Shown: positions 20,299 to 39,800 of the stretch, in pieces
Position numbering within the stretch: position 1 is the first letter of the stretch
Layout: each line of letters opens with the position of its first letter
Virus record (IMG/VR): IMGVR_UViG_3300009509_000019
DNA length: 64,000 nt
Strand: one strand, 5' to 3'
DNA from: an uncultured virus (IMG/VR IMGVR_UViG_3300009509_000019)
Lineage: Duplodnaviria > Heunggongvirae > Uroviricota > Caudoviricetes
The notes under the pieces: generated by a model
What the model was told of the DNA's origin: nothing
Seen by the model: only the letters and a program-made list of their open reading frames with translations
Databases searched by the model: none
Translations under genes and position numbers: made by a program

Positions 20299-20832
20299 TT
20301 ATGCAGCCTTATCGACTGCGGTCAGTTTCATCTTGGCACACGCCTCGGACAGAGCTTTCTTGGCTTCCGGCGCTGATACCCCATGCTTGAGAGCATTGAG
20401 GCAAGCGCGCTCGATTGCCTTGATATAGTCCTCTGCCGTTTTCTCCTTTGCGGCTTTGGGCTTGGATTCCTCATCCAGACGCCGACGAATGTCAGCTTCA
20501 AAGTTGAGGATACCCTCAGCGTTCATCGTGGCCAGCGCATTGCGCTTACCGGGCTGAATTGAGCCGGTGAAGATGTGCGCTTCACGATCGTAGGGGAACG
20601 GGATGTTCGGCACGAAGCAGCGGCGGAACGTGGGGCCGAAGCCGATCAGTTCCGCAGCGGCGGATGCCTTGTTCGCCCACTTGATGTCACCGAATTCGAT
20701 GACACGGGCCACGCAGTTGACGGCCCAGTTGTAGAAACGCTCTTTGAGTTTGGCACGCGCTGGATCAGCGAAGTACCGAGCGTCGGTTGCGAACTGCGAT
20801 TTGGTGAGGTTGCTAAAGAGTTTGAGTTCCAT
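20299..20832 (-). CDS. First gene of early arm, hypothetical protein
   Basis: 177 aa, RBS AGGAG, Ala/Lys-rich C-terminus. Confidence 0.75.
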   Translation of the reverse strand: MELKLFSNLTKSQFATDARYFADPARAKLKERFYNWAVNCVARVIEFGDIKWANKASAAAELIGFGPTFRRCFVPNIPFPYDREAHIFTGSIQPGKRNALATMNAEGILNFEADIRRRLDEESKPKAAKEKTAEDYIKAIERACLNALKHGVSAPEAKKALSEACAKMKLTAVDKAA

Positions 20833-20835
20833 TTT

Positions 20836-21240
20836 CCATCTCCTGAAGATGGATCGGCGGCAGCATTTGTATGGCCTCAAGTGGCTGAGACGTTGCATCT
20901 CAGCTTTGTCCATACAGTCAGAGCGATTTGTTGTCAGCACTCTGACACCCGTACGCGCTCCCACAGCGGGGTTCACACGTTGGGTCAGCCTAAGGCGCAG
21001 GTAGTCGCCGGTAGGTCGGTTGGGGTAGCCTCAGCGTGTTGCCAGCACGCACGTTTCTTGTCAGTACCTTGCCCTCGCCCTCGCATGGGGTCGCATCGTA
21101 CTCGACGGTCGCAGACCGCGTTTCCGCGCTGCCCATGCCCTGTTCGGGGTTAGAGTCCAGATGCGCCGTAGCGCCCGCGGCTTCACCCGCGTCCTCGACC
21201 GGTTACGCTTGCGCGCCTCGCTGTCTACTCTGGATTCACT
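20836..21240 (-). ncRNA. Putative structured leader or non-coding RNA
   Basis: About 400 nt with no credible ORF and several hairpins: CCATCT/AGATGG, TGTATGG/CCATACA enclosing GCTGAGA/TCTCAGC, GTCAGAG/CTCTGAC, GCGTG/CACGC, CGGTC/GACCG. Confidence 0.4.
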
Positions 21241-21326
21241 TAGGGCATATTTAATGAAACGGGCACCCCGGCATGGACACGCCCCCCCGGTCAGGCGGCG
21301 GCCATCATCTAAGTCCGCCATACCGC

Positions 21327-21356
21327 TTGACAAAAAACACAATGCGCATGTAATCT
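21327..21356 (+). promoter_or_regulatory. Putative sigma70 promoter for rightward arm
   Basis: TTGACA (21327-21332), 18-bp spacer, TAATCT. Confidence 0.55.
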
Positions 21357-21388: not shown

Positions 21389-21730
21389 ATGAAAATAAAC
21401 ATCATGACACGACATGACATACGTCTTGTAGACGTAGTGCTCTTTTTCCGTGATGGTACGAACTTCGGCTTCACGACCCGTACGGATCCTCAGCGCAGCT
21501 ATGGTCGGACGCTCGAACCCATGACCATGAACTCGCAGCACATCGTCGGCCGTCTCATGCCTGACGTGAAGAAGGTTCTCGTCAAGTATGAGCTCAACGG
21601 CCACGCCATCGAGTACGAGCATTTCCCGACCGCCAACGACGTTGACATCAACATCCGCCTGACCGGGCGGTCGCTCGGTGAGGAGCTGCTCAGAAATAAA
21701 GCGTTGGAAGCCGTGGAAAAATATGGATAG
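21389..21730 (+). CDS. Hypothetical protein
   Basis: 113-aa ORF directly after the putative promoter. Confidence 0.6.
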   Translation: MKINIMTRHDIRLVDVVLFFRDGTNFGFTTRTDPQRSYGRTLEPMTMNSQHIVGRLMPDVKKVLVKYELNGHAIEYEHFPTANDVDINIRLTGRSLGEELLRNKALEAVEKYG

Positions 21731-21739
21731 AATCTACCC

Positions 21740-22057
21740 ATGGCCAAGATCAGCAACGTGCGCGAGTTTGTACCCGAACTGTGGAGCGAGCAGATCATCA
21801 AAGAGTTCAAGTTTCACATTCACCACAACCACATCACCATGAAGCGCAGCAAAGGTGAGAGGTTACTGCGTGCGGCCGCGCAGGGTGCATCTCAGGAAGA
21901 ACTTGATAAGATCGACAATGACGAACCAACAGCCACAGTAGGAGAGCTGTATGATTTTCTCAAAGAGGAGTGGGCTAACGACGCTGCTGATGCTCTGCGG
22001 TATGCTATTGACGCAGACATCATGGGCAACCTGTCCACCGGGGCACGAACGAAATGA
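21740..22057 (+). CDS. Miniature major-capsid-like protein (105 aa)
   Basis: FVPELWSEQIIKEF and WANDAADALRYAIDADIM align without gaps to capsid FIPELWSGKIIEKF and WADDASEQMKIDIDTDVL. Confidence 0.7.
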   Translation: MAKISNVREFVPELWSEQIIKEFKFHIHHNHITMKRSKGERLLRAAAQGASQEELDKIDNDEPTATVGELYDFLKEEWANDAADALRYAIDADIMGNLSTGARTK

Positions 22058-22799
22058 CTCGTGCGGAGACGAGGCGGATAGCATCACAGCTAGCGCTACA
22101 GGATCCGCAGAGGCTACATCAAGTAGCACAGCTTCTGCAGAGTCAACCAGTAACGCCACTTCAAGCTCGGGCGGTAATAGCCAATCCATCAATATTTCTG
22201 AATCTCACCCGTCATCTCTCAAAATCCGCAACGTTGCGTCACCGGATACGCCTAATCCATACCCTACTGCGCCTTGCAGGGTCGGCGTATCTGGCGGGTT
22301 GTCGATACCGGGCGGTGCGCTGAGCGGCGGTGGGAGCGTTGAAGATGAGGAGTGTACGCTCCGTGAAACCGCGAGGTCGTTCAAGGATCTCGGAGTTCCG
22401 GAGGTCGGCCTTTATCTTCTTTGCACGCAGTCTGATGTGGTACTTGGCCGCCGCAACAAAAGGGGCGAGATGGAGAAAGGAGAGCCAGAGCCTCTTGGGG
22501 CCACTGAATGTCTACGACTCGTACGGGAATTTCAAGGGAGTCCTGATGAGCATGACCTTGTCGGAGGCAACGTTGAGGAACTTAGGCGCGAGTTGGAGGT
22601 TCTGCAGGAGCAGCTCGATCAATCCGAATCAGCGCACGAAGAACTTGCCAAAGAGCTTGCTGAAGTACGCGAAGTCCGTAGTCGTCCCGCCCCGCGACCT
22701 GCCGCAGCTCGACCCCAAATTATCCAACAGGAGTACCTATCAGCAGACAAGCGAGCAAAGCTGGCGGCACTCGTATCTGACGAGGAGACGGAGAAATGA
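21951..22799 (+). CDS. Exported protein with Ser/Thr-rich linker, Cys-containing domain and coiled coil
   Basis: Signal-peptide-like N-terminus, RBS AGGAG, C..GVSGG....G..SGG....DEEC..RE.AR...LC pattern. Confidence 0.7.
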   Translation: MIFSKRSGLTTLLMLCGMLLTQTSWATCPPGHERNDSCGDEADSITASATGSAEATSSSTASAESTSNATSSSGGNSQSINISESHPSSLKIRNVASPDTPNPYPTAPCRVGVSGGLSIPGGALSGGGSVEDEECTLRETARSFKDLGVPEVGLYLLCTQSDVVLGRRNKRGEMEKGEPEPLGATECLRLVREFQGSPDEHDLVGGNVEELRRELEVLQEQLDQSESAHEELAKELAEVREVRSRPAPRPAAARPQIIQQEYLSADKRAKLAALVSDEETEK

Positions 22800-23059
22800 A
22801 TAAATTTGTCAGTGAGAACGGAGGGATCCTTGCTGTACTGGCAGTATGCGCCGTGATCGGCGGTGCGTATATCGAGTGGCGCATCGACGTCAACGTAACA
22901 TCCAAGGTGAATGCGCAGGGAGCGATTACGCCGGATCAACTCGCACTCGTCTCGTCAAAATTGGAGGGCATTAAAGAGGATGTCTCCAAACTTGAAGGCG
23001 ACAATGATCGCTTGGAGGACAAGATCGACCAAGTGATCGGTATTCTCTTGGAGGACTGA
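22796..23059 (+). CDS. Membrane-anchored coiled-coil protein
   Basis: One TM helix and a heptad C-terminus; ATGA coupling. Confidence 0.65.
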   Translation: MNKFVSENGGILAVLAVCAVIGGAYIEWRIDVNVTSKVNAQGAITPDQLALVSSKLEGIKEDVSKLEGDNDRLEDKIDQVIGILLED

Positions 23060-23481
23060 TGTTCGACTGGTTCTATAACTGGCTGGATCCAAAGATTCTG
23101 AAACTTGAGCGCTGGGTCAATAAGAAGGTTGTCGAAATTGACAAGATCGACATTGATCTGGACAAGGTCAAGAAATTGGAGGTGAGGGAGAATCCCATGT
23201 TTCGTAACCCCCCTGATTCTGGGAAGAACGGCCCCTTCATCACCAACCTTCAGGGTGGCGAGGTCGTCGAGTACATAAGTGGCCCCGGGGAGATGGAAGC
23301 ATTCGCTCTGCTTCGTTTTGACGACGAACTCTGGTGGCGTCACCGCGATGCGGGGACTACTGAGGACTTTCGCCATCCTGCTTTTTCGGACATGAAACAC
23401 TTTTTCGAGTATGCGATAGGCGACGTCGAAAAATACTGGGAATGTGTTTTGCGGACAAAGGCGCAGCAGTGTGGAGACTAG
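23059..23481 (+). CDS. Hypothetical protein
   Basis: TGATG-coupled 140-aa ORF with GGAGG RBS. Confidence 0.6.
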   Translation: MFDWFYNWLDPKILKLERWVNKKVVEIDKIDIDLDKVKKLEVRENPMFRNPPDSGKNGPFITNLQGGEVVEYISGPGEMEAFALLRFDDELWWRHRDAGTTEDFRHPAFSDMKHFFEYAIGDVEKYWECVLRTKAQQCGD

Positions 23482-23992
23482 GCGTGAAGCTATCGCGTTA
23501 CTGTCGCCAAAGGGGTGCGCAGGGGCTGAGCTCGGTGTTGCTGGCGGATCTCTTACTAAGCGCTTTCTCGATTTGGGCCATTTCTCTGAATTTCATGCTG
23601 TAGACAAATGGGACGATGCAGGACATCCGAAAGCGCAATACGACGCAGTCGTGGAGAAACTGAAAGACTACGAGGAGTTAACGATATGGCGTACCACTGC
23701 ACAACAATGGTTGCAGACGATCCCGGATGGGAGTCTTGGTTTCATCTATGTCGATTGCTACGCGCATACGGGACAGGACGATGGAGAGATATTAACGCTC
23801 GCATGGCCGAAATTGGCCGAAGGTGGGCTTTTTTCAGGAGACGACTATGATCGGAGGAATTGGCCAAGGACTTTTCAGCGGGTTAATGAATTCGCAAACC
23901 GCGTCCAGCGGACAATTAACGTCTACGACAACCACGTCGGCCACGAGCACGGGGGGATGGATAAACACGCTGGGTGGTACTTCTACAAGTGA
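23471..23992 (+). CDS. Class I SAM-dependent methyltransferase (Methyltransf_24-like)
   Basis: AELGVAGG, AVDKW, FIYVD..H, W.KL..GG...GDDY. Confidence 0.85.
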   Translation: METRREAIALLSPKGCAGAELGVAGGSLTKRFLDLGHFSEFHAVDKWDDAGHPKAQYDAVVEKLKDYEELTIWRTTAQQWLQTIPDGSLGFIYVDCYAHTGQDDGEILTLAWPKLAEGGLFSGDDYDRRNWPRTFQRVNEFANRVQRTINVYDNHVGHEHGGMDKHAGWYFYK

Positions 23993-25500: not shown

Positions 25501-25615
25501 AACCAAAAAACAGCAGCGTTTCATGGGCATGTGTACCACGGCAAAAGGTCGCAAAAAAGCCAAGGGTAAGTGCCCGCCCAAAAAAGTCGCAAAGAAGTTT
25601 GCACGCAAAAAATGA
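25490..25615 (+). CDS. Basic 41-aa peptide
   Basis: MPAKTKKQQRFM...KKVAKKF, a pattern I recall from phage late regions. Confidence 0.65.
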   Translation: MPAKTKKQQRFMGMCTTAKGRKKAKGKCPPKKVAKKFARKK

Positions 25616-26250
25616 ACACAAAAATGCACAACGGATTTGAGTTCCCTGCTTACGACAAGCAGTGCCATCCTGTTGTGTTTCAAGAACAAGACAAAATTGA
25701 CAAGATTGTGCAATTTTGCAACCAAAAACGAGCTGTGATTCAGGCCGGGGGAAACGTCGGTGTTTTCCCCGCCCATCTCGCTTCAATTTTTTCCGAAGTT
25801 TTTACGTTTGAACCCGATGCTGAGAACTATGAGTGTCTGAAACGAAACATCACTCGCTTGGGTCTTGGAAACGTAAAGGCTTCTTTGTCTGCTTTGGGCC
25901 GAGATAACGCCTCTGGCAGAATGACGAAACCACATCCGAATAATTGCGGAGCGAACACTGTTGTTACCGGATCAGATTTCATGATTTCACGGCTCGATGA
26001 TGTTTTTCCGCACCGAGATGACATTGATTTGTTGTATCTCGACATTGAGGGGTATGAGTGCAAAGCTCTGGACGGAGCAAAAGCGCTTATTGAGCGTTGT
26101 AAGCCCGTCATCGTCGTTGAAAACAAGGGGCTGATACCTGAGTTTCCCAGCGGCATAGAAGGTAGCTCTGAGTTCAGGAACTGGATTTGTGATTTTGGCT
26201 ACCAACACCGAGCACGACTCATGCGTGACGACGTTTTTATACCAGTATGA
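25612..26250 (+). CDS. FkbM-family methyltransferase
   Basis: IQAGGNVG, TFEPD..N, LYLDIEGYE...L.GA...I..CKPVI.VE. Confidence 0.9.
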   Translation: MNTKMHNGFEFPAYDKQCHPVVFQEQDKIDKIVQFCNQKRAVIQAGGNVGVFPAHLASIFSEVFTFEPDAENYECLKRNITRLGLGNVKASLSALGRDNASGRMTKPHPNNCGANTVVTGSDFMISRLDDVFPHRDDIDLLYLDIEGYECKALDGAKALIERCKPVIVVENKGLIPEFPSGIEGSSEFRNWICDFGYQHRARLMRDDVFIPV

Positions 26251-27671
26251 AACTTGATTTCACTCCTACGCCCACTTGCCGTGAATTTATGCTCTCGACT
26301 AAGAGGGTTCGGTTCCTTGTCGGCGCAGTCGGTAGCTCAAAGACAACTACGTGCCTATATGAAATACTCCGCCGCGCTGCCGAACAGGAACCTGCGCAGG
26401 ATGGAGTTAGGTACACACGCTTTGCGATTATTCGTAATACTCTTGCCGCGATTAAGTCCACCGTTCTTAAGGATATCCAGCAGATTTTTGGCCCGATTAT
26501 CGACTATCGTGTGTCCGAATCGACCGTCTACATAAGACAGGGTGACATCCACTGTGAAATACTCCTTATACCGCTGGATACTCCGGACGACCAGAAACGC
26601 CTCCTCAGCTCGCAGCTTACGGGCGCTTACTTTAACGAGTTTGTTGAAGTTGATCCTGTATTCATTTCTGGAGCGTTGGGTCGTTGCGGTCGCTACCCCT
26701 CCCAGCTCAGAGGACGACCGACATGGTATGGTGTATTTGCAGACTCGAACCCGGGCACAGAGGACTCGCCTTACTACGAAATCCTTAAAGTCGATCTACC
26801 CGAAAGCTACGGTTACTTTGAGCAACCGTCACCACTTCTGAGAGACGAAGATGGGAATATCACGGAGAATCCAGACGCCGAAAACATCCAATATCTGCCG
26901 GGTGGATTCGACTATTACTGGACGCTACTTAACGGCGCATCGCCTGAGTGGTCGGAACGCTTCGTATACGGACAGTGGGGCGAGTCTTTACAGGGTCAAG
27001 CCGTTTTCAAGAATACTTTTCGGGCTGGGTTCCATGTTGCGAGTTCGGAACTTACTCCTTCAGTTGGCCATGCGCTCATTATCGGGATGGATTTTGCACG
27101 GGCACCTGCGGCAGTTATCTGTCAAGTGGATCACACTGGGCGTCTGCTGGTCATGCAAGAAGTCTATGAAGAAAACATGGGCGTTGAAAAGTTTGTTCGT
27201 GACCGTCTCATGCCCGTCGTGTTCAGCCCCCGCTTTCAAGGGAAACCCATGTACATCGTTGGCGATCCATCGGGCACGACAAAGTCGCAAATTGGCGAGA
27301 GATCGGTCTTCACGATGCTCAAGGGGTTAGGCTTTGAAGCAGTACCTGCTCAGACAAATCATATCAAGCCGCGTTTGGACGCCGTTGAGAAATGGCTCCT
27401 TATGCAGCGTGAGGGAAAAGCGGCAATACTTTTTGACCCTGAGCACTGTCCTGAGCTCATTGTTGCTCTTAAGCATAAATACCGCTACCGAGCTCGCAAG
27501 GACGGAGAACTGGAAGATAAACCTCATAAGGTACGCCCTTGGGCTGACCTTGCCGATGCTCTGCAGTATGCTTGTCTCGGAACTGCGCAAAACCTGATGG
27601 GTAAAGTCATGCGCCGTATTCAGCGTAGCCCACAGAAAAAACCAAACATGCCGGTAGGAGCGTGGACATGA
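26247..27671 (+). CDS. terL: Terminase large subunit
   Basis: GAVGSSKTT Walker A, FNE Walker B, GRYP, DSNP, nuclease IGMDF, GDPSG and DLADALQY. Confidence 0.95.
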   Translation: MKLDFTPTPTCREFMLSTKRVRFLVGAVGSSKTTTCLYEILRRAAEQEPAQDGVRYTRFAIIRNTLAAIKSTVLKDIQQIFGPIIDYRVSESTVYIRQGDIHCEILLIPLDTPDDQKRLLSSQLTGAYFNEFVEVDPVFISGALGRCGRYPSQLRGRPTWYGVFADSNPGTEDSPYYEILKVDLPESYGYFEQPSPLLRDEDGNITENPDAENIQYLPGGFDYYWTLLNGASPEWSERFVYGQWGESLQGQAVFKNTFRAGFHVASSELTPSVGHALIIGMDFARAPAAVICQVDHTGRLLVMQEVYEENMGVEKFVRDRLMPVVFSPRFQGKPMYIVGDPSGTTKSQIGERSVFTMLKGLGFEAVPAQTNHIKPRLDAVEKWLLMQREGKAAILFDPEHCPELIVALKHKYRYRARKDGELEDKPHKVRPWADLADALQYACLGTAQNLMGKVMRRIQRSPQKKPNMPVGAWT

Positions 27672-28117: not shown

Positions 28118-28607
28118 GATCGTCTGCTCTATACCGCATTCAGGCACTCACTTTTTAAGACACCATTTCAACTGCACTTCGCTGCATGTGTGCGCACATT
28201 GGGGCAGCGTGATGCGGCGTTTGCCTGCAGATGCGCACATAATTGTGCCGCTGCGCAAACCTGCACACGTTTGGCATTCGTGGGGTAGAAGAATGGAGAA
28301 TCCGGATCTGGCCTATTTCATGCAAGGTTGGTACAACCTCCATGCCATGAGCCTGATTTTTGATCTCGATTTTATTGATCTTGAGGCGCAGGACGATCCG
28401 CGAATTACTGATTGGACGCCTAGAGGAACACTGGATGAGTACGAGTTTACGCCGAAACTCCTACCATACAAACACCGCAACGTGCTTCATCAGATACCGT
28501 TTGTGCAGGAACGCTACGGGCTACCCGTTAAGCCCGATGAATTTTGCGACAGTGAGGAGCTTCTTCTGCACCCATTCCCCAAACGTCCCCGCAGTCGTAT
28601 GACCTGA
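28083..28607 (+). CDS. Sulfotransferase-like protein
   Basis: 5'-PSB-like loop SIPHSGTHFL and IIVPLRKP...WHSW 3'-PB-like motif. Confidence 0.6.
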   Translation: MTSQSDPKARRKIVCSIPHSGTHFLRHHFNCTSLHVCAHWGSVMRRLPADAHIIVPLRKPAHVWHSWGRRMENPDLAYFMQGWYNLHAMSLIFDLDFIDLEAQDDPRITDWTPRGTLDEYEFTPKLLPYKHRNVLHQIPFVQERYGLPVKPDEFCDSEELLLHPFPKRPRSRMT

Positions 28608-29045
28608 AATAGCCTCGTCCCACACCGCATCAGCAATGTTGTCGAGGTCACCCTGACCGATTGACTGGCCTTGGTTGATGACCAGACCGGCTGAGTTTGT
28701 TGGGATCACCTGTACTTGGTTCTGGTTGAGGTTGCCTGCTTCGATGTCCCAAAAGTCGTTGTTACTGCCTTCCAGTCGTACAGACCACTGAGAGTCAGGT
28801 GAGAAGGTGTAACTGTAACCGTTGAGGGTACTGAGCGTACGGGCGTACGTCACACCGGCAACAGTAACCTCAGTGTTGTGGCTGAACGAATCAGGCATCC
28901 AGATGTAGTCCTCGCTGGCGAGCAAGGCCATCATCTCTTTACGCAGCGCATTTGTATCTGCTGAGTAGAGTGTTCCCGTTACGAGCGTCAGGTCTGCTTG
29001 ATTGATAGTGAAGACCTTGGTCGCTGGGTCAAGTGTCATTGCCAC
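28521..29045 (-). CDS. Putative virion-associated protein (inverted cassette)
   Basis: HNTEVTVAGVTYAR...NGY, V.L.GSNN, NSAGL and IADAVWDE motifs. Confidence 0.65.
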   Translation of the reverse strand: MAMTLDPATKVFTINQADLTLVTGTLYSADTNALRKEMMALLASEDYIWMPDSFSHNTEVTVAGVTYARTLSTLNGYSYTFSPDSQWSVRLEGSNNDFWDIEAGNLNQNQVQVIPTNSAGLVINQGQSIGQGDLDNIADAVWDEAISGHTTAGTFGEWVQKKLLTVAKFIGLNG

Positions 29046-29391
29046 CTATCATGTCCTCCGGCGTTGTGCTCCCGCCATTGGCAAGCCACGACTGCAGTTC
29101 AATCGCCCGCTGTTTCTGGAACTGTGCAAACTGTCCTTCGAGTGTTGACAGCTTGTTCACCAGACGATTGTTGGCTTCTTGAAGCTCGCTCATCTGGTGT
29201 TTGACCATGGCCATTTCTTCCTGAAGCCCCTTGACCGTGGCTACCTCACCAATCGTGAGCTTGGCCTTGGCCACATCCTGCATGGCTCCACGAAGCTCAG
29301 CAGGGGTCTTCCAGTCTTCTTCAGGCGGCCCCCGGTCGATTTCCATTGGTACGCCGTCGATGTCTTCAGTTGTGCTGCCAAATGTGCTCAT
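29029..29391 (-). CDS. Coiled-coil protein (inverted cassette)
   Basis: Heptad-rich middle; coupled to neighbours. Confidence 0.6.
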   Translation of the reverse strand: MSTFGSTTEDIDGVPMEIDRGPPEEDWKTPAELRGAMQDVAKAKLTIGEVATVKGLQEEMAMVKHQMSELQEANNRLVNKLSTLEGQFAQFQKQRAIELQSWLANGGSTTPEDMIGGNDT

Positions 29392-31250
29392 TATTCGTCC
29401 AAAATCATTAGGGCAGAAATGTCACTACCGTTACTTGCGTCAGTGATAGAAAGTGTTGCTTGCCTGTAATACGGGCTGGTAGTTGATTTACGTGCCCACC
29501 CTTTCAGCCCTTGTGAAGCTGGCCATGTCTTTGATGCTTGTACGCTCGACGGGCTGCCAGATGTAGTCCCATACAATCCGACATATGAGAAGACGGGTGT
29601 GCCCCCTGCTGAGGCTGAGGCACCTGCATCCACCGTGTAAGTGAACTGCGTCGTGCTGGTCACAGTGATCTGGGCAACCTTGTTGTACAGTTCGTCACCT
29701 GCGCCACGCACCACGACGTAGTCATTCGTGGCAAGACCATGCGCAGCAGATGCAGTAAGTGTTGCAGTACCGCCCGTCTGAGTGAGGGTGGAGACAGACG
29801 CTTGATAGGGGAAGCCACTGCCACCTCCGTTATCGGCAGTCTCTAAGAAAACTCTGACGCCAGTAACATCAGCACCGGCTTCGTCAATAGTTGTGACCTT
29901 TGTTACCACGGGGTTGACAACAAGTGTTACCGTGATACCAGCTGCATCATCAACACCTACATTGGACGTTGTTGCCGGGTTGCCGTCAACTGTACAGTCA
30001 ATAAGGTTGACGTTGATCGAGCCTGAAGTTGCATCAAATCTGAGCGTTGAGTTGTTGGCATCTGCTGTTGAGCTGAATCCAGTGAACTCAATACCAGTCA
30101 GAGTGATATCGTGCGTTACCCCAGTGCCAAACCTGATGGCATGGTGAGCATTAGTACCAATACTGAAGGTGCAGTTATCCAATTCACTGATGGATGTAGC
30201 ACCCGAAGTCGTCCGGTTGTCATACACAGCACCTTCGTCAGCAGCGACAGTTGGTGTCAGGATTTGTGAGCCTGAGATGTCCGCTTGATTGAGCACGATT
30301 TGCCCTGAACTTGACCATTGGCTGTCGATACAGGAGCTAGTACTGGCAAAGGTCGTCGTGCTGCACCCGGCGAAGCGATTATTCACCCCGGTAAATGTGC
30401 CCACGTTGAGCGTCAGTACAGCCGGTGAGGTAGTACCCAGATGCTGAATGGTAATGCCAGTCCACTCTACATTGGAGCTGGCATTGCGTATCTCGAACTC
30501 GTTGAACCCTGTGGGCAGAAATGGATCATCCAGAACAATAATGTTTCTGTTCGAGTCACGAAAGTCTACTGCAGTGCCCGTGGTGCCCATCACAAATGCA
30601 CCGTGGAACCAGTAGCCGCCCGTTACAGGGGTCAGGATGCCCCAGCGCCGAGTGTTGTTGGCATCGAACGCCCCAGCGCCAGAGAAAGTTGCGTAGTTCG
30701 CTGTCTCACCGTTGGTGCATTGCAGCTCTCGGCCATGGCGCTGCACGTCCATGGCGTTCGGGTTGCCCTTCAGGGAGCCTGAGCCAAGAATCTTCCAGTT
30801 GAAGCCGACAAGGTTAGTGCCTGCTGCGCCGCCGCCCACGGTGTTCGATGGGGTCTGGGTTGGGTCAACAGCATAGGTGCGCCAGCCTGCAAGGTCAGAG
30901 CCTTCCGTGTTCGAGCCGTCCACGTAGAACTCATCATAAGCTGTAGTTGAATTGCCCACGAGGAACCGCATCCCACCGTTGGCAATGGTGTCCATCAGGT
31001 TGCGGTTGTTCTGCTTGCCCCACACGAAGATTGCATCGCCTGATGCCACAGTGCGTGACCCTGCATCGTCCAGCATGAAGCCCTTGGTGGTCGCCGTGAA
31101 ACCTGCCTTGGAGATACACTGCGGAGTCTCAACGAAATAGTCAGTCTCGTCAGCTAGACCAGACGCACCACCGCCAAGCGCCGTGTAGTTAGCCACGTTG
31201 TCGGCTTGGTCGTAGTCAGACAGATCAGTTGCGTAGACTGGCGCTACCAT
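29391..31250 (-). CDS. Thr/Ser/Gly-rich fibre- or spike-like protein
   Basis: 619 aa, beta-rich, beta-helix-like centre, HGL...D.V.V.G....YN....IT FCCH-like module. Confidence 0.65.
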   Translation of the reverse strand: MVAPVYATDLSDYDQADNVANYTALGGGASGLADETDYFVETPQCISKAGFTATTKGFMLDDAGSRTVASGDAIFVWGKQNNRNLMDTIANGGMRFLVGNSTTAYDEFYVDGSNTEGSDLAGWRTYAVDPTQTPSNTVGGGAAGTNLVGFNWKILGSGSLKGNPNAMDVQRHGRELQCTNGETANYATFSGAGAFDANNTRRWGILTPVTGGYWFHGAFVMGTTGTAVDFRDSNRNIIVLDDPFLPTGFNEFEIRNASSNVEWTGITIQHLGTTSPAVLTLNVGTFTGVNNRFAGCSTTTFASTSSCIDSQWSSSGQIVLNQADISGSQILTPTVAADEGAVYDNRTTSGATSISELDNCTFSIGTNAHHAIRFGTGVTHDITLTGIEFTGFSSTADANNSTLRFDATSGSINVNLIDCTVDGNPATTSNVGVDDAAGITVTLVVNPVVTKVTTIDEAGADVTGVRVFLETADNGGGSGFPYQASVSTLTQTGGTATLTASAAHGLATNDYVVVRGAGDELYNKVAQITVTSTTQFTYTVDAGASASAGGTPVFSYVGLYGTTSGSPSSVQASKTWPASQGLKGWARKSTTSPYYRQATLSITDASNGSDISALMILDE

Positions 31251-31432
31251 TCTGGGTCGCTCTCCATTGTTGTTATCTCACCCGCAGTCAGGGCCACGAA
31301 GTTGCCTTCGGGCCCATCCTCGGTGAGCTTAGTTGCACCGCATGGACAGACGACGCGCTGCCCTTCAGGGTCTGAATCCCTGAACCACAGCACGTCGCCG
31401 CAATCAGCGCATTTTGTATGCGCCCGCGCCAT
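31244..31432 (-). CDS. Small zinc-ribbon protein
   Basis: CADC...CPCG. Confidence 0.6.
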   Translation of the reverse strand: MARAHTKCADCGDVLWFRDSDPEGQRVVCPCGATKLTEDGPEGNFVALTAGEITTMESDPEW

Positions 31433-33750
31433 TAGATGTCGTCGATGCGGTTTACGGAAGCTGTACCACCGGTGTTTGTCATCGTACCAGTAGCCTCCGC
31501 CGTCTTGATTGGCGTTGCTCCACCATCACGGACGCGGACGAAATGATCCCTGTCTGCGCTGTACACGTAACTGAATGAGTCAGACGTGCTCGTTGCCGTG
31601 TAGTCGAGATACCCGATAAAGGCGTTGTTACCCGTGGTCGCGTTGTTGGTGCTGAAGTCCGTCGAGGGGATGGTGAAGTCATCCGTGCCCGTGTCGAACG
31701 CCGTGTACCTGTGCAACGACCACAGCCCATTGTCACGCTCGATACGCAGACTGCCTTTGGTGCCAGCCGAGGTCGGCGTGTCACTGGGGATTGCAGTCAC
31801 CGAAATTGTGGTCACTGCTGCACCTGTATATGTTGCATTCAGCGTCAACTGCGTGAAGTTGATGTCAGTTGCACCAGCATCCTTCTCCGTGCAAAGCACG
31901 TAGTCTCCCGAGATGAAGCCCGACACCGTGAAGGTGACGTTGTTCGGCGGGAAGATAGCTGTGTTGGACAGGTCGAAGAACGTATCAGCCGCTGACGTAT
32001 CCGCTGCTTCCATACCGAAACCGTATGCACCGATGAGCGCGGAGCCCGTTGATACACCGCAGAACGGCGTGGATACAGAATATGCTACTGAATCAGCACT
32101 CAGCGTGTAGTAAGCGGGGTGATTGCCCGGATCGTATATGCGAGTGTTGTTGAGCGGCTGTACGCCCTTGGTTAGCTGACCGTAGATGAATCCTGTCGCA
32201 CCTTGATCGTCCAGTGCAAAGATCGCCAGCTCGCCAGCGGCATTCTGGATTTCCTCACCGGCAGGCGTTGCCGAAACCGTTGCCTGTGCGCCCGACGACT
32301 GACCCGTGAACGTATCGGATATCGTGACTGTGCCTTCTTCGATGTCGATGATGAGCGACGTGTCTGTGCCATCAACACTCAGCACTCGACCTTTCCACGT
32401 TGGCGTTGCCGTGTCCTCATGAACTGCCTCACCTACCGTGAACGGGCCACCCGTGACAGCACCGTGATTGACGTAGGTGCCGAACACCCACTTTTCATTC
32501 GTTGCGGCAGCAGGCGTACCAGTCTCAGTATCGTAAGCCATCGAGTGTGTAACGCCGCGATGCAGCTCACCGTTCTGCCCATTGAGCGTTGAGCTTGAGC
32601 TGTCAGCAGACAGCAATTTCATACGCTCGTAAAACTGGTTGATGGTGAACGTGTCTCGGTTCCACTCGGAGTAATACTGCTCGTCCGTACCGTCACCAGA
32701 GATGTCGATGAGCCTCAGACCTTCGGTGTTGGTGATCGTAGACCAGCCATTTACCGTGGCAAACGCCGTGGTGTTGTTCAGGTCATTCGAGTCTGACAGA
32801 GCGAGTACGTTGTTACCCGGGGAGGTGCCGTTGATGGAGAACTCGCTGTAGGTGTTACCCCACCGACGCGCAGTGCCGAGCAAACGACGACGAGCGATGT
32901 CAACGCCGAAGTCACGAACTTTGACCATGAAACGATGCGAAATACCCGCACCAGCACTGCTATTGATAGGTACAGCGATGTTATATACATCTGCTGCTAC
33001 CCAGTCATTCGAGGTGCCGCCGTACAGATAGTCCACTGTAATCGTGGTCGAGGTGTTGGCTGTGACAATGCCCTGACAACCGTCTGTGATGTTGCGAATG
33101 GTGTAGCCTACCCACTCATCTGTAGTCCAGCTTGCTGTGCTGTCCGTCAGTACCGTGCTGCTGGTGCCACCTGAATGTGAGCCCGCCTGCCAGCCATAGT
33201 TCCAGTAATCATCCGACAGGATTGCACCGTTCTGAATGACTTGGATGTGGACGTCGGGGTTACCGAAGTTGACGATACCGTCCCAGCGTTCCTGCGTCGG
33301 GCCAACACCCTGCGTGATCGTGCCATCATACAAGTGCTCGATGGCCGTGGCATCTACGTTGAACCCGTTGGTCAGCGTGATAATGTTGTCCGTCGAACGT
33401 GCTGATGGATCCTGTGAGATGATGTCCAGCTCGTCATCGCCCGACCATTCCGGGTCGTCTGCAAGGTTCTGCAACCATCTGTGGAACTGGATGACTGTTG
33501 CGTAAGACGCAGCTTGTGTAGCTACGCCAGTGCCGGTTCCGGCACCTGTTGCCTCGAAGCGCAGGCCAACCGTGTTGGATGCTGCACCTACGAGCGTGAA
33601 GTCGGTCGTCCCGACTGATCTGATTTGGTAGTAGTCACCGGTCACGAAACTACCAGCATTGACCGTTGTCGTTGGACTGTGGTCAAAGCCGATGTAGCGG
33701 ATGTTGCCGGTGGCGCGATCTACTGACCAATCACCGTCTACCATTGGCAT
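31432..33750 (-). CDS. Large modular virion structural protein (772 aa)
   Basis: Beta-rich with inserted modules (AGSFVTG..Y.I.SVGTTDFT, LTDSTASWTTDEW.G, FTVGE...GQSSGA). Confidence 0.65.
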   Translation of the reverse strand: MPMVDGDWSVDRATGNIRYIGFDHSPTTTVNAGSFVTGDYYQIRSVGTTDFTLVGAASNTVGLRFEATGAGTGTGVATQAASYATVIQFHRWLQNLADDPEWSGDDELDIISQDPSARSTDNIITLTNGFNVDATAIEHLYDGTITQGVGPTQERWDGIVNFGNPDVHIQVIQNGAILSDDYWNYGWQAGSHSGGTSSTVLTDSTASWTTDEWVGYTIRNITDGCQGIVTANTSTTITVDYLYGGTSNDWVAADVYNIAVPINSSAGAGISHRFMVKVRDFGVDIARRRLLGTARRWGNTYSEFSINGTSPGNNVLALSDSNDLNNTTAFATVNGWSTITNTEGLRLIDISGDGTDEQYYSEWNRDTFTINQFYERMKLLSADSSSSTLNGQNGELHRGVTHSMAYDTETGTPAAATNEKWVFGTYVNHGAVTGGPFTVGEAVHEDTATPTWKGRVLSVDGTDTSLIIDIEEGTVTISDTFTGQSSGAQATVSATPAGEEIQNAAGELAIFALDDQGATGFIYGQLTKGVQPLNNTRIYDPGNHPAYYTLSADSVAYSVSTPFCGVSTGSALIGAYGFGMEAADTSAADTFFDLSNTAIFPPNNVTFTVSGFISGDYVLCTEKDAGATDINFTQLTLNATYTGAAVTTISVTAIPSDTPTSAGTKGSLRIERDNGLWSLHRYTAFDTGTDDFTIPSTDFSTNNATTGNNAFIGYLDYTATSTSDSFSYVYSADRDHFVRVRDGGATPIKTAEATGTMTNTGGTASVNRIDDI

Positions 33751-33761
33751 GATTAGTTACC

Positions 33762-34217
33762 TCACGAGTAGCTTAAAGAAGCTCTGTTGTCCCAAACATT
33801 GTCTCTGTTGCTGTTTCCGTCAGCCCATTCAGTAACCGAATCGGTATTGCCAGAACCGTCTACAGTAAAAGTTATCCGCTTGATCCTCCATGTTGCGGAG
33901 CTCGTAATCGTGCCCGGGAGAGCGTCACCGACATATAACACATCGCCGCCGTTTTCTTCGTCCACGCGCTGAGCTTTACTCATTTTCTCTATTCCAAAAT
34001 CTGTCCTTACCCACGATCCCGGTGTGGCATCGTCGGGCTTAATGATATCAACTCCGTCGTCAGAACGGGCGTCTGTATCATCAAATATGAACCATCCTTC
34101 TTCATCACCCACGAGCACTGAAGCAAGGTCGTTATCGACCGGCGAGCCAAGTGCGCGCAACTCTGCGTATGTTCTTGCACGTAACGTTGCAGATCGTTGG
34201 ACACGTTGAATACCCAT
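33762..34217 (-). CDS. Putative virion attachment protein
   Basis: DDG..IIKP....G.W tailspike-N-like segment plus YVG.A.PG......WRIKRI...WADG......WDNR.SL.Y. Confidence 0.6.
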   Translation of the reverse strand: MGIQRVQRSATLRARTYAELRALGSPVDNDLASVLVGDEEGWFIFDDTDARSDDGVDIIKPDDATPGSWVRTDFGIEKMSKAQRVDEENGGDVLYVGDALPGTITSSATWRIKRITFTVDGSGNTDSVTEWADGNSNRDNVWDNRASLSYS

Positions 34218-34666
34218 TACTTGGCCCAGTCAGCGGGTTCTTTTGATTGTGGGTGACGCCTCAAGTGTTTGAGGTATGGGCAGGTGAGATACTTCTGATC
34301 GCCCGGATGGATTACGCGGAGTGTTGCATCTACTTTGTCAGCGGGGATTGCTTTGCCTCCCGCTACCGGTGGGCCATTACCATTCTTGGTGCAGTAGATT
34401 GCTTTGATGGTGTCGTAGCCAAGTTGCTTCATGGCTATACACCTGTTGTTGCCGAGCTGTACTTTGCGGAAGGTGTTGTCATCTTCGACGATGACTGGAT
34501 TGATTAACCCTTTCTCTTTAATGCTTGCGCACAGCTTCTCAAATTCTTTGGGGCCCATACCTCCCGTCTTGACTCCACCAGTCCTGCTTTCCGGGATATC
34601 AAAGTAGTCCAGAAGCTCTATTGGGAAGTCATCAAAGTAGAAGGCTTGCACCCCATTGATGCGCAT
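34217..34666 (-). CDS. ParB/sulfiredoxin-like N-terminal domain protein
   Basis: L..SIKEKGLINPVIV....GNNR..A...LG...I.A. Confidence 0.8.
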   Translation of the reverse strand: MRINGVQAFYFDDFPIELLDYFDIPESRTGGVKTGGMGPKEFEKLCASIKEKGLINPVIVEDDNTFRKVQLGNNRCIAMKQLGYDTIKAIYCTKNGNGPPVAGGKAIPADKVDATLRVIHPGDQKYLTCPYLKHLRRHPQSKEPADWAK

Positions 34667-34750: not shown

Positions 34751-36802
34751 ATGGCGGGCATCCTGCAAGTCGTCTCACCCCAGCAGCTTTCGGAGTACGA
34801 GGCGAAAGTCCAAGCAGAGCGTGAGCCACCCGTACAGCCCATCGAAATGGAGGGGCTGGTTCAATACATTCGTGATGAGTTCAGCGATGCTCGCAACGCA
34901 CGCTACGTCAACGGTATATCTCAAAGACTCATCGAAGCGCAGCGTACCTACCGTGGTGAATATGACCCCAGCAAGCTGCGTGATATCAAGGCGTTCGGAG
35001 GATCAGAAGTTTACTCCCGCGTAACGCCGACCAAGTGCCGGGGCGCGACGTCAGTACTGCGTGACCTTTATTTATCCGGAAGCGAGCCGCCGTGGGAGCT
35101 TTCCCCCACTCCTACACCCACTCTCCCAGAAGACATCAACGAGGCCGTCATGGGTCTTGTACAGGCTGAGTTGCAGGTGGCTCAGCAGCAAGGTGCTCAG
35201 ATTACTGAGGAGATGATCTCCAAGAGGCTGCAACAGCTCTACGATTCTGCGCAAATGGCGGCCATCAAAAACGCCATGGAGGAAGCTAAGGAAGCGAGTC
35301 GGGAGCTCAATGACGTACTTATAGAAGGCAGATTTTATCAGGCCCTCAAAGAGTTCCTCATTGACCTGCCGATTTTTCCTATTGCCTGTCTCAAAGGCCC
35401 CGTAGTCCGCCAGAAGACGAAAGTCCGCTGGGTAAACGGACGCCCCAAGCAAGAAACCTCCCCTAAGCTGTTCTGGGAACGGGTCAGCCCTCTGGACTTG
35501 TATTTCACCCCGGATGCTAGCCATCTCGACGAGTCCTATGTTATTGAGCACGTTAGGTTTTCTCGGCAGGAGCTGTACAATCTCATCGGTGTCCCGGGGT
35601 ATAAAGAGGACGAAATCCGTGCTGTCCTCGCTGACTTCAAGGACAAGACGCAGTCAAGGTCGTGGCGAGATTGGTTTGACGAGGAAAGGGAAGACCTTGA
35701 GGACAGAGATCATTGGGAGTCCGCCCGTGGCCAGCTCATTGACGCTTTAGAGTGGCATGGCTGCATACAGGGACAGATGCTGCTGGATCACGGGTTCTCC
35801 GAAGATCAGATCGACGACCCTGAGAAGGAGTACATGGTTGATGCTTGGGTCGTGGACAGGTACTGCATCAAGGCGCAGGTAGCGCCAAGTTTGACCAATC
35901 GGCCAAATTACTACATCACCAGCTTTGAAAAGATCCCCGGATCCATTTGGGGATACGGCCTTCCGGATATCTTGGAAGACATCACCTCAGTCTGCAACAC
36001 CACGATGCGGGCTATTGTCAACAACTTGTCAATAAGTTCCGGCCCACAGGTAGTCGTCAATCTTGACCGGCTGGCCGAGACAGAAGATGCCAACACGCTG
36101 TACCCGTGGAAACGCTGGCATGTGGTGGATGACCCACTGGGCAACAAAGAGAAACCCGTGGAGTTCTACCAGCCCAACAGCAACGTACAGGAGCTGATGG
36201 CCGTCTATGAGAAGTTTGCGAATATGGCCGATGAAGCGTCGGCTCTCCCCAAGTACCTTACCGGCTCGGGTGCGACTGGCGGCGCAGGACGTACAGCATC
36301 TGGTCTTGCCATGCTTATGGATAACGCATCGAAAGTCATGCAGAACGTGGCAGCGAATGTGGATGATGACATCCTCATGCCTTGCATCGAAAAGCTCTAC
36401 GAGCTAGTCATGCTGGCGGACGCTGGCCCCAACTTGCAAGGTGACGAGACAATTGTTGTCAAGGGCGTGACAGTAGCCGTCCAGAAGGAAACGGATCGGA
36501 TGCGCAAACTTGAGTTCCTGCAGATGACCGCGAACCCGATTGACATGCAGATCATGGGTATTCCGGGACGTGCCGCAGTGCTTGAAGATGTTGCGGAAGA
36601 ACTTGGTATCAAAGGGAAAAAGGTAGTACCATCTCCTGAAGAACTTGAAGCTATGCAGAAGCAGCAGCAGATGTTAGCTGCCGCGCAAGGAGGAGCTCCG
36701 GGTGGTTCGCCCCAGCAAGCCCCGGCTCCGCAGGAAGGTCGTGAACCTGCAATGCAGGCAAGGCAGGGGCAGGAAAACGTAACCCGAGGAGTAGTTCAAT
36801 GA
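34751..36802 (+). CDS. Portal protein
   Basis: 683 aa, first gene of head cluster. W.RVSPLD.Y, PGSIWG.G, RTASGLAMLM and Gln-rich tail are typical of podoviral portals. Confidence 0.88.
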   Translation: MAGILQVVSPQQLSEYEAKVQAEREPPVQPIEMEGLVQYIRDEFSDARNARYVNGISQRLIEAQRTYRGEYDPSKLRDIKAFGGSEVYSRVTPTKCRGATSVLRDLYLSGSEPPWELSPTPTPTLPEDINEAVMGLVQAELQVAQQQGAQITEEMISKRLQQLYDSAQMAAIKNAMEEAKEASRELNDVLIEGRFYQALKEFLIDLPIFPIACLKGPVVRQKTKVRWVNGRPKQETSPKLFWERVSPLDLYFTPDASHLDESYVIEHVRFSRQELYNLIGVPGYKEDEIRAVLADFKDKTQSRSWRDWFDEEREDLEDRDHWESARGQLIDALEWHGCIQGQMLLDHGFSEDQIDDPEKEYMVDAWVVDRYCIKAQVAPSLTNRPNYYITSFEKIPGSIWGYGLPDILEDITSVCNTTMRAIVNNLSISSGPQVVVNLDRLAETEDANTLYPWKRWHVVDDPLGNKEKPVEFYQPNSNVQELMAVYEKFANMADEASALPKYLTGSGATGGAGRTASGLAMLMDNASKVMQNVAANVDDDILMPCIEKLYELVMLADAGPNLQGDETIVVKGVTVAVQKETDRMRKLEFLQMTANPIDMQIMGIPGRAAVLEDVAEELGIKGKKVVPSPEELEAMQKQQQMLAAAQGGAPGGSPQQAPAPQEGREPAMQARQGQENVTRGVVQ

Positions 36803-37762: not shown

Positions 37763-38836
37763 ATGGCGCTCCCCAAACAAGTTCGTAACCAGATCAAGCA
37801 AAACGAAGAAATCATCGAGGCTGTCCATAAGGAGCAGGCCGACGCTCGTAAGGAAGCTGAAGATGCAGCACAGGCTGAGATTGATTCGCTGCTAGCAGAA
37901 GTTGATCCTCCCAAGGAAACGAAGCAGGAGAAACCGAAAGCAGAGGTTACGGAGCTTCATCCGGCTAAAGAAGAAGGAGGTGATCCCCCGTCTACGCCCG
38001 AGAAGGTAGAGCGTATAGATTGGAAGCAAAAGTATTCCGTTCTGAAAGGCAAGTATGACGCTGAGGTGCCGCGTTTGTCTTCTGACTTACGCGATGCAAA
38101 CAGGCGCATCCAAAGTCTTGAAGATAAGATTGCCGAGATTGCTTCTGAGAAGACAGCTCCGAAAGAAGAACCCACTCGGTCGGATTTCACTCCTGAGGAA
38201 ATCGCTGATTACGGCGAAGACCTGTTGGATGTGATTGGCAGGAAAGCTCGGCAGATCGTTGAGGCAGAGTACAAGCCTCAAATTGCTAACCTTGAATCGA
38301 CTGTTGCGACTTTGAAGTCACAGCTTGGCGAGACTGGTCAGCGAGTCGGCAAATTTGAACAGAATGAAGTCTTTGCCCAGCTCGACGCGAGCGTTGAAAA
38401 CTGGCGCAAGATCAACGTTGATCCAGAGTTTCACGAGTGGCTGGATCAGGTAGACCCCTTTTCAGGGGAAACTCGTAAGGGCCTCCTCCTGCGAGCCTTT
38501 GACCGCAAAAACGCCCATCAGGTCAAGGCTTTCTTCGAGAGGTACATTGAGGAAAACGCGGCTGTTTCGCCAACTCCAACCGATCCATCACCCTCTGGGC
38601 AAGGGGGAAAACAAGGATCGACACTGGACTTGAATGATTACGTAGCACCCGGCCAACCAAAGGGCGGGTCAGGTACAGCAGGCGCTCCTAAAGACAAGCG
38701 GATGTGGACTTCCGCTGAAGTCGGTAAGTTTTACTCCGACGTTCAGAAAGGACGGTACAAGAGCCGTCCGGAAGACAAGATCCGTATTGAGGCAGACATT
38801 GTGGCTGCTACACGCGAAGGGCGTATCAGGTCTTAG
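37763..38836 (+). CDS. Capsid scaffolding protein
   Basis: Acidic coiled coil, KY..LKGKY..EVPRL, W..IN.DP.F..WL, C-terminal A.REGRI; directly upstream of capsid. Confidence 0.8.
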   Translation: MALPKQVRNQIKQNEEIIEAVHKEQADARKEAEDAAQAEIDSLLAEVDPPKETKQEKPKAEVTELHPAKEEGGDPPSTPEKVERIDWKQKYSVLKGKYDAEVPRLSSDLRDANRRIQSLEDKIAEIASEKTAPKEEPTRSDFTPEEIADYGEDLLDVIGRKARQIVEAEYKPQIANLESTVATLKSQLGETGQRVGKFEQNEVFAQLDASVENWRKINVDPEFHEWLDQVDPFSGETRKGLLLRAFDRKNAHQVKAFFERYIEENAAVSPTPTDPSPSGQGGKQGSTLDLNDYVAPGQPKGGSGTAGAPKDKRMWTSAEVGKFYSDVQKGRYKSRPEDKIRIEADIVAATREGRIRS

Positions 38837-38855: not shown

Positions 38856-39800
38856 ATGGCATATCCATATTCCCCCAGTGCGGGTAGTCAGGCATTCACG
38901 CCTCCGACTCCTCCGTATTCGGGTGTGTTCATTCCGGAGCTGTGGTCGGGCAAGATCATCGAGAAGTTCTACGATGCTACTGTCCTCGCAGCAATCGCAA
39001 ACACGGACTACGAAGGTGAAATCACCGCCTACGGCGACAAGGTGACGATCCGCACGAAGCCCAACATCACGATCAACGACTACCGTGCGTACGATGCGTT
39101 GAGCACGCAAGTACCAAACAGCGGAGTTGTCGAGCTGCTGATCGACTCAGGTAAGTACTGGTCTACGGTTCTCGACGACGTCATGGAAGTCCAGTCTGAT
39201 CTCGACCACTTCAGCATGTGGGCTGATGATGCGTCGGAGCAGATGAAGATTGACATTGACACCGATGTCCTCGCAGGCATCGCTGCTGACGTCGCTGCAA
39301 CGAACCAAGGCGCAACCGCTGGTGTTCAGGCTGGTACTTCGCTGAACCTCGGTGCAGCCGGTACGCCGTTCGCAGTTTCGACGACCAACGTCATCGACAA
39401 GATCATCGAGTGTGGTCAGATTCTTGACGAGAACAACATCCCCGAGACGGGCCGCTGGTTCGTTATCCCGGCATGGATGGCAGCTCTCATCAAGCGTTCG
39501 GATCTGAAGGATGCTTCGCTCACGGGCGACGGTGTCACGATGCTCCGTAACGGCCGCCTCGGTATGATTGACCGCTTCACGCTGTATGCGTCGAACCTGC
39601 TGCCCTTCGGCACCACGGACGTCGCTCACAGCTGCTACTTCGGTCACTCGCATGGACTGACGTTTGCTTCGCAGCTGACGAAGGTCGAGACTCTCCGTGC
39701 TGAAAGCACCTTTGGTACGCTCCTGCGTGGTTTGCAGGTGTTCGGCTACAAGGTTGTTGACGGTACGGCTCTCGGCATCCTGTACGCTAGCAGGGCATAG
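38856..39800 (+). CDS. Major capsid protein (HK97 fold)
   Basis: FIPELWSGK, N.DYEGEI...GD.V.I, LDENNIP..GRW, G.IDRF.LY.SN, RGL.VFG.KV; followed by a hairpin. Confidence 0.93.
   Translation: MAYPYSPSAGSQAFTPPTPPYSGVFIPELWSGKIIEKFYDATVLAAIANTDYEGEITAYGDKVTIRTKPNITINDYRAYDALSTQVPNSGVVELLIDSGKYWSTVLDDVMEVQSDLDHFSMWADDASEQMKIDIDTDVLAGIAADVAATNQGATAGVQAGTSLNLGAAGTPFAVSTTNVIDKIIECGQILDENNIPETGRWFVIPAWMAALIKRSDLKDASLTGDGVTMLRNGRLGMIDRFTLYASNLLPFGTTDVAHSCYFGHSHGLTFASQLTKVETLRAESTFGTLLRGLQVFGYKVVDGTALGILYASRA

Follow-up and report, generated by a model that had tools for sequence, protein, structure and literature searches.

The window, by which we mean the whole 64,000-nucleotide stretch of DNA that was analysed, covers most of a phage genome of about 63-64 kb. 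Its leftward genes encode replication functions (primase, helicase and DNA polymerase), and its rightward genes encode TerL, portal, capsid, tail and ejection proteins. On the plus strand we located the terminase large subunit (TerL; 26247-27671; phrog_2, E 1.2e-24) with a DLADALQY nuclease motif at aa 434-441, the portal (34751-36802; PF23899 SU10_portal, E 2e-12), a putative scaffolding protein (37763-38836) and the 314-aa major capsid protein (38856-39800; phrog_267 major head protein, E 1e-53; PDB 8e16, E 6e-19). The putative scaffold matches phrog_13678, a family of unknown function, and is named from its position 5' of the capsid gene and its conserved C-terminus. With polymerase, TerL, portal and capsid genes, the window does not have the make-up of a satellite that lacks a capsid gene of its own. 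Among cultured phages, the nearest are Rhizobium phage RHph_TM3_14A and three isolates almost identical to it (TerL 44.9% and capsid 55.9% identical), and a relative in IMG/VR, G001, is a complete 63-kb phage with direct terminal repeats. Runs containing the window DNA are labelled as sludge, soil and marine sediment metagenomes.

The subject of this study is gene A, which encodes a mini-protein of 105 aa with four predicted helices (21740-22057, plus strand). The rightward arm that contains it is headed by a putative sigma-70-like promoter, TTGACA-18-TAATCT (21327-21356, plus strand). Just 5' of the promoter, where two gene arms diverge, is a conserved non-coding element with the core CCCGGCATGGACA (21266-21292, plus strand), which is present in all six loci printed (the window, L001, L003, L005, L006 and L007) and is possibly a genome end, a packaging site or a regulator site. 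The promoter is identical in L003, and L001, L005, L006 and L007 have TTGCAA or TTGCAC/TTGACA variants in the corresponding position; a consensus promoter scanner did not return the site at 21327-21356. The six loci have a common order of promoter, gene U (one or two copies) and gene A, with one extra ORF ahead of gene U in L005, and gene B follows in the five loci that reach so far, L007 being cut off. A first-pass annotation of this DNA had placed gene A second after a putative promoter of its own, and both the order and the site are kept in related loci. In the window, gene U encodes 113 aa (21389-21730, plus strand; no PHROG or Pfam family) and gene B encodes 282 aa (21951-22799, plus strand). 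Contigs from RNA runs, which carry neither strand nor level, cover gene A in two of four runs; in one of these they cover 30/30 bins and may be DNA. The deepest such contigs map to the long gap that separates the arms (20548-21304), which could be the site of an abundant leader or small RNA.

A search for relatives of gene A found 52 proteins, of which 50 were kept (47-133 aa, median 94.5) and two long repeat proteins, P0016 and P0022, were left out as unrelated. One of the 50 is 99% identical to the window protein. The frame is open in five full loci and one cut-off locus, and in codons 1-70 pN was less than pS in 15/15 pairs, with a dN/dS of 0.10 for the window against L001 and 0.35 against L003. 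The first-pass annotation had named a lack of orthologs and neutral decay among the outcomes that would refute its reading; orthologs exist, and the selection is purifying. We reject the explanation that gene A is a capsid pseudogene fragment in neutral decay, given the open frame across loci and the excess of pS in every pair. The window protein has no Pfam, PHROG or PADLOC family, and PADLOC assigned 0/5 proteins. We conclude that gene A is a real gene of an undescribed family with a well-supported composite anatomy, and that its product falls outside the capsid, terminase and Ccm families; its function we can only infer.

Gene A was found on one contig in IMG/VR. Three queries of cultured phages returned no full-length relative, RHph_TM3_14A and Rollin are without gene A, and one DNA pattern gave 0 matches in prokaryote genomes. 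Nine pattern matches among those listed were attributed to chance, a further pattern scan giving 0, and at least 96 candidate loci proved to be full capsid genes rather than gene A. Four relatives found through TerL are fragments that hold capsid matches only or, in one, a core-motif ORF. Longer or fused forms of gene A were absent among 8000 candidates, which is weak evidence.

Capsid-derived blocks and the family core

Two blocks of the gene A protein are copies of helices in the phage's own capsid protein. Block 1 (aa 10-23; 21767-21808, plus strand) contains FxPELWS, is identical to capsid aa 25-38 at 9/14 positions and occurs in 42/50 relatives. Block 2 (aa 78-95; 21971-22024, plus strand) is identical to capsid aa 122-139 at 7/18 positions and occurs in 38/50. 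Both are found together in 34/50 relatives, and from the HK97 topology we take block 1 to be the N-arm helix and block 2 to be the spine helix. The first-pass annotation had reported both matches, their order as in the capsid, the absence of the capsid C-terminus and a distance of about 17 kb between the two genes, and each of these was recovered, with 175 capsid residues following block 2 and a distance of 16.8 kb.

The capsid match also held up against shuffled sequences, a check proposed with the first-pass annotation. The summed ungapped score of both blocks against the capsid was 108, compared with 49.2 on average and at most 70 across 300 shuffles, and the gapped score of 58 was equalled by 1/3000 shuffles. 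The top two PDB matches of a 48-row family profile are capsids, 9jwb (E 0.0011, with the blocks in order) and 8e16, and 11/48 family members match phrog_267; these two results support a capsid ancestry of both blocks. Column conservation in the blocks correlates with that in capsids (rho 0.82 for block 1, with seven distinct capsid blocks, and 0.50 for block 2). Distant members read YTDDAADALAY[AQ][IVL]DxDIL, near capsids reading YTDDAGYALAKQVDxDL, although the latter were found with sub-alignments of the family and are a biased set. Block 2 of the window is nearer its own capsid than another capsid clade (score 50 vs 29). In 19/33 members it resembles the other clade, and own capsids are known for a minority of these.

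The description of gene A as a miniature capsid paralog should be used with care, as two capsid helices are present in a mosaic around a non-capsid core and not in a miniature HK97 fold. Like HK97-fold capsids (phrog_267/PF25209; PDB 8e16, 9jwb), the protein has the FxPELWS N-arm helix and the spine helix in order; unlike them, it is about 95 aa rather than about 310 and has a novel helical middle. The E-loop, P-domain sheet and A-domain are missing and the model contains helices only, so the gene A product is unlikely to serve as a shell protein. An AlphaFold2 model was obtained, as the first-pass annotation had suggested, and has four helices (pLDDT 72, pTM 0.36) with the core best defined, but at this pTM no meaningful fold match emerged: fold searches with the model reached a best Z of 4.8, to generic helical chains, and a best Foldseek E of 1.6. 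The first ESM Atlas matches, at 0.80 or below, include some labelled terminase and are leads only.

The stretch between the blocks is indeed unrelated to the capsid, as first annotated, but it is the best-conserved part of the family. This core (aa 35-60; 21842-21919, plus strand) consists of an RSxGxxLLRxAAxG helix and a second helix, occurs in 49/50 relatives and has the highest pLDDT of the model (88-91). It is not derived from the capsid, may have a likeness to an ankyrin cap, and is common to neighbouring small genes. The C-terminal helix of gene U (aa 93-106; nt 21665-21706) resembles it, scoring 15.2 bits with the core PSSM (0/500 shuffles), and a profile-profile comparison of gene U with gene A gave E 3.3e-4 over 17 columns at a probability of 38%. 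When the core profile was run over 202,412 positions, the best matches after the gene A family were the helices that end the gene U homologs, together with a 59-aa ORF of L117; of eight in-frame core candidates, five scored above all 500 shuffles and three were equalled by 2-6 of them. The core looks like a docking helix common to otherwise unrelated small proteins. The gene U family occurs as one or two tandem divergent copies (window 21389-21730; L001 7348-8017; L005 2084-2882), all with a terminal LLRxxA[ML] helix like the gene A core. The L117 ORF (625-804) follows gene B, at the place where the window has an 87-aa gene.

One function consistent with the two capsid helices is modulation of head assembly, in which the protein would titrate or chaperone the scaffold or capsid monomers and so time or size the prohead, the two helices serving as a scaffold-binding face. 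The scaffold of SPP1 attaches to the N-terminal helix together with the amino end of the spine helix (PMC6813328), and that of 80alpha chiefly contacts the N-arm helix (PMC5644958). The nearness of the window's block 2 to its own capsid and the position of gene A on the structural arm also favour such a role. On the other hand, it leaves the core shared with gene U and the three-register terminase motif described below unexplained, the closest cultured relative has a 56% identical capsid and no gene A, and the other-clade likeness of block 2 in most members assessed is awkward for it, again with own capsids known for a minority of these. A complex prediction of the mini-protein with the C-terminus of the putative scaffold scored 0.01, which is uninformative either way. 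We consider this role unlikely. If gene A were an assembly factor, it would show the scaffold-binding face of a capsid in minimal form.

The window also has a degenerate portal-like sequence, TVGEL (21935-21949, plus strand), at the T[AT][TG]E[VIML] motif of the relatives, whose pattern the window protein does not fit. The looser form occurs in 17/50 relatives and the strict form, TATE[VIML], in 8/50, against shuffle maxima of 3 and 2, and in two members the motif is N-terminal to the core. Positions 384-434 of the portal family phrog_332 are matched by three gene A members at E 0.04-0.25. The window portal reads RTASGLAM at the place where some portals of the same family have a TATE-like motif. 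We treat the portal-like motif as a weak lead only.

A second capsid-derived gene apart from the main capsid gene is also found in SaPIbov5 (Ccm) and in T4 (gp24). Both of these proteins retain the complete fold and become part of the shell, whereas gene A has two helices and sits in a complete phage. Ccm is the satellite's capsid homolog and reshapes helper capsids (PMC8569155). With this precedent of interference by a capsid homolog, gene A might be a weapon that disrupts head assembly or packaging in co-infecting phages, or sets off host defence against them. The better fit of block 2 to a foreign capsid clade in the 19 members, and a portal-like motif unlike the phage's own portal, agree with that idea. 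The window protein, however, is closest to its own capsid, and no integrase was found among the 45 + 23 window ORFs scanned, which would leave little time to exclude other phages. We regard a weapon as rather improbable.

A terminase-nuclease-like motif and the overlap with gene B

Block 2 also carries a terminase-nuclease-like motif, D81xxD84A85xxY88 (21980-22003, plus strand). The first-pass annotation had pointed to a 6/7 identity between ADALRYA in gene A and ADALQYA in TerL. That identity is present, but as a pairwise match it does not exceed chance (121/3000 shuffles); its significance appears at the level of the family. The pattern [HD]xxD[AS]xxY occurs in 32/50 gene A relatives (shuffle maximum 3 in 2000) as opposed to 0/50 capsid spine regions, and it is the C-terminal motif of the terminases in the fetched loci and of the phage's own TerL. 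All three locus terminases checked contain Terminase_6N, and two contain Terminase_6C. The likeness to the Terminase_6C (PF17289) nuclease is confined to this C-terminal active-site helix motif, which in gene A stands alone, on a capsid helix and in three registers. The RNase H-like beta-sheet and the attached ATPase are not present in the 105-aa, all-helical model, and 0/48 members matched a terminase Pfam family at E 0.5.

The central Asp of the motif falls at block position 7 in 19 members, at position 3-4 in seven and at position 19 in three, with three unanchored. All members with position 19, and six of those with position 3-4, belong to two distinct, well-supported clades (99/95 and 99/88, respectively). 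Of six permuted control patterns, five were absent and one, which overlaps the real pattern, occurred 10 times. Since the pattern was picked after inspection of the data, we enumerated all 14,440,000 patterns of the same shape on 48 rows. Only 762 of them reach 31 members, and [HD]xxD[AS]xxY is alone among these in having three anchored registers; at a cut-off of 20 members, 2/1084 patterns have them. Because the members are related, the 32 carriers amount to about three origins. This recurrence supports the earlier claim of a terminase-like motif in gene A. It points to repeated selection for the terminase motif itself, and the repeated placing suggests that something reads it.

The conservation pattern also bears on an explanation in which the family consists of domesticated fragments, with the core helix working as a docking tag, the capsid helices left over and [HD]xxD acting as a metal-binding or helix-capping site. 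In its favour, the core is more widely kept than either block (49/50, against 42/50 and 38/50) and recurs in gene U homologs and the small L117 ORF. A simple metal site, however, needs no terminase-specific D[AS]xxY ending, and column conservation in the blocks follows that of capsids. We judge domesticated fragments to be an unlikely account as well.

Codons 71-105 of gene A, including block 2, overlap in the +1 frame with the start of gene B and its signal-peptide-like N-terminus (about aa 1-26). The overlap is found in all five loci that hold the stretch. Gene B, which has a weak match to phrog_20531 (E 1.1e-5), has pN less than pS outside the overlap, and dS between the window and L001 falls from 3.8 to 0.17 within it. 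Block 2 could accordingly be a shadow, as Leu and Met codons of gene B are read one base earlier as Ala, Asp and Tyr. By this account, block 2 and its terminase motif would be an artefact cast by the Leu/Met-rich signal peptide of gene B, or gene A would be a decaying fragment. The coincidence of block 2 with the signal peptide wherever DNA is at hand, and the collapse of synonymous change there, fit this account. So does L003, where both the capsid and the terminase likeness are lost and gene B is kept, and the clades with the other two registers are represented by protein sequences alone. In L005, the match to the capsid of the window clade is lost (443/1500 shuffles) and the other matches are kept.

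Against such an artefact, shuffling of the gene B signal codons never reached the match between the window's block 2 and its own capsid (0/3000 and 0/1500), nor the match to two terminase profiles (0/1500 each). Block 1 and the core, moreover, are not part of the overlap and evolve under purifying selection. The shuffles largely reject a shadow-frame origin of block 2, and we consider an artefact very unlikely. They also indicate that the block 2 region is dual-coded: the overlap constrains the block 2 match but does not explain it. The locus is also a clear example of a signal peptide in the second frame of a capsid-derived helix.

A further ORF, ORF C (22054-22323, plus strand), is nested in gene B and would start at the ATGA at the gene A stop (22054-22057), which is present in 5/5 loci. 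Its pN is at or above pS in 3/3 pairs, and it is most likely a shadow frame rather than a gene. Beyond its N-terminus, gene B encodes a Ser/Thr-rich linker, a conserved domain containing Cys and a coiled-coil tail. It is followed by the 87-aa membrane gene at 22796-23059, and the two may form an envelope or lysis module (weak spanin match, E 0.049).

A possible decoy for sensors of head proteins

Taken together, the reading we favour is that the gene A product is a non-activating, multi-epitope decoy aimed at host sensors that recognise capsid or terminase, and we put its probability a little short of even. Gene A would be expressed from a host-type promoter as a small soluble helical protein. 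The protein would display the best-conserved short surfaces of the head machine, namely the N-arm helix, the spine helix and, on the same spine helix, the terminase active-site helix; some members would add the portal-like motif, and all would arrange these around the core helix common to neighbouring small genes. The decoy would occupy capsid and terminase sensors before or while the real proteins accumulate, and through the core helix it may be linked to a shared partner. Early timing, binding to sensors and blocking rather than triggering would each be part of the proposal. The logic resembles that of T7 Ocr, a look-alike that occupies a defence protein (PMC12409349), except that Ocr mimics DNA and that mimicry by gene A is our proposal.

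Mimicry fits better than assembly because capsid and terminase epitopes stand on one chain without their working domains; a lone active-site helix would have no evident use in assembly. Evidence for the decoy includes a single chain bearing motifs from two, and possibly three, virion proteins, together with purifying selection on codons 1-70 and the conserved sigma-70-like promoter. Reports on known sensors also speak for it. CapRel contacts the spine helix and the P-domain sheet in an AlphaFold model that contains the escape residues (PMC9712102), short motifs of the capsid are what CapRel and Lit recognise (PMC13581612), and SeAvs3 recognises residues of the terminase active site (PMC13601566).

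Several observations argue against a decoy. Avs7, Avs8 and Avs10 bind the capsid A-domain, which gene A lacks, and Avs sensors recognise the overall shape of a fold (PMC13581612); staphylococcal Thoeris is escaped through the E-loop and P-loop, both absent here (PMC12578639); and Avs2 holds a single nuclease helix, PhiV-1 495-505 (PMC13601566). The motif helix in PhiV-1 is 514-523 and not 495-505. A close enough copy might activate a sensor rather than block it. Decay of block 2 is also seen in L003 and partly in L005, where the gene B frame dominates, and gene A may be late, as it heads an arm that runs on to the packaging genes.

More tentatively, and with clearly lower confidence than in the decoy as such, gene A may represent a whole family of multi-epitope decoys in which one helix reads as both capsid spine and terminase and the core docks several small early proteins. 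Such proteins would also include the N-arm helix of the capsid, and some of them a portal motif, which can lie before or after the core. If so, a single gene would disable several sensors of head proteins together. Capsid, portal and terminase are sensed by bacteria because these proteins leave phages little room for mutation, and a small protein that gathers just such conserved epitopes offers a direct and cheap test of evasion by decoy. The three placements of the terminase motif hint at a surface that an unknown sensor reads, and gene A could serve as bait for motif-reading sensors. No capsid-terminase mimic was described in the literature searched, a body outside which most subscription papers and bioRxiv supplements lay.

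Elsewhere in the window, two methyltransferase genes lie among the packaging genes (23444-23992 and 25570-26250; Methyltransf_24, FkbM-like). A block of minus-strand genes (28524-34666), mostly without family and including some large ones (619 and 772 aa), splits the structural arm between TerL and the portal. A giant ejection or lytic protein (56858-64000) runs past the window end, and an ORF at the window start (1-1143), which matches the C-termini of giant PHROG families, may be its continuation.
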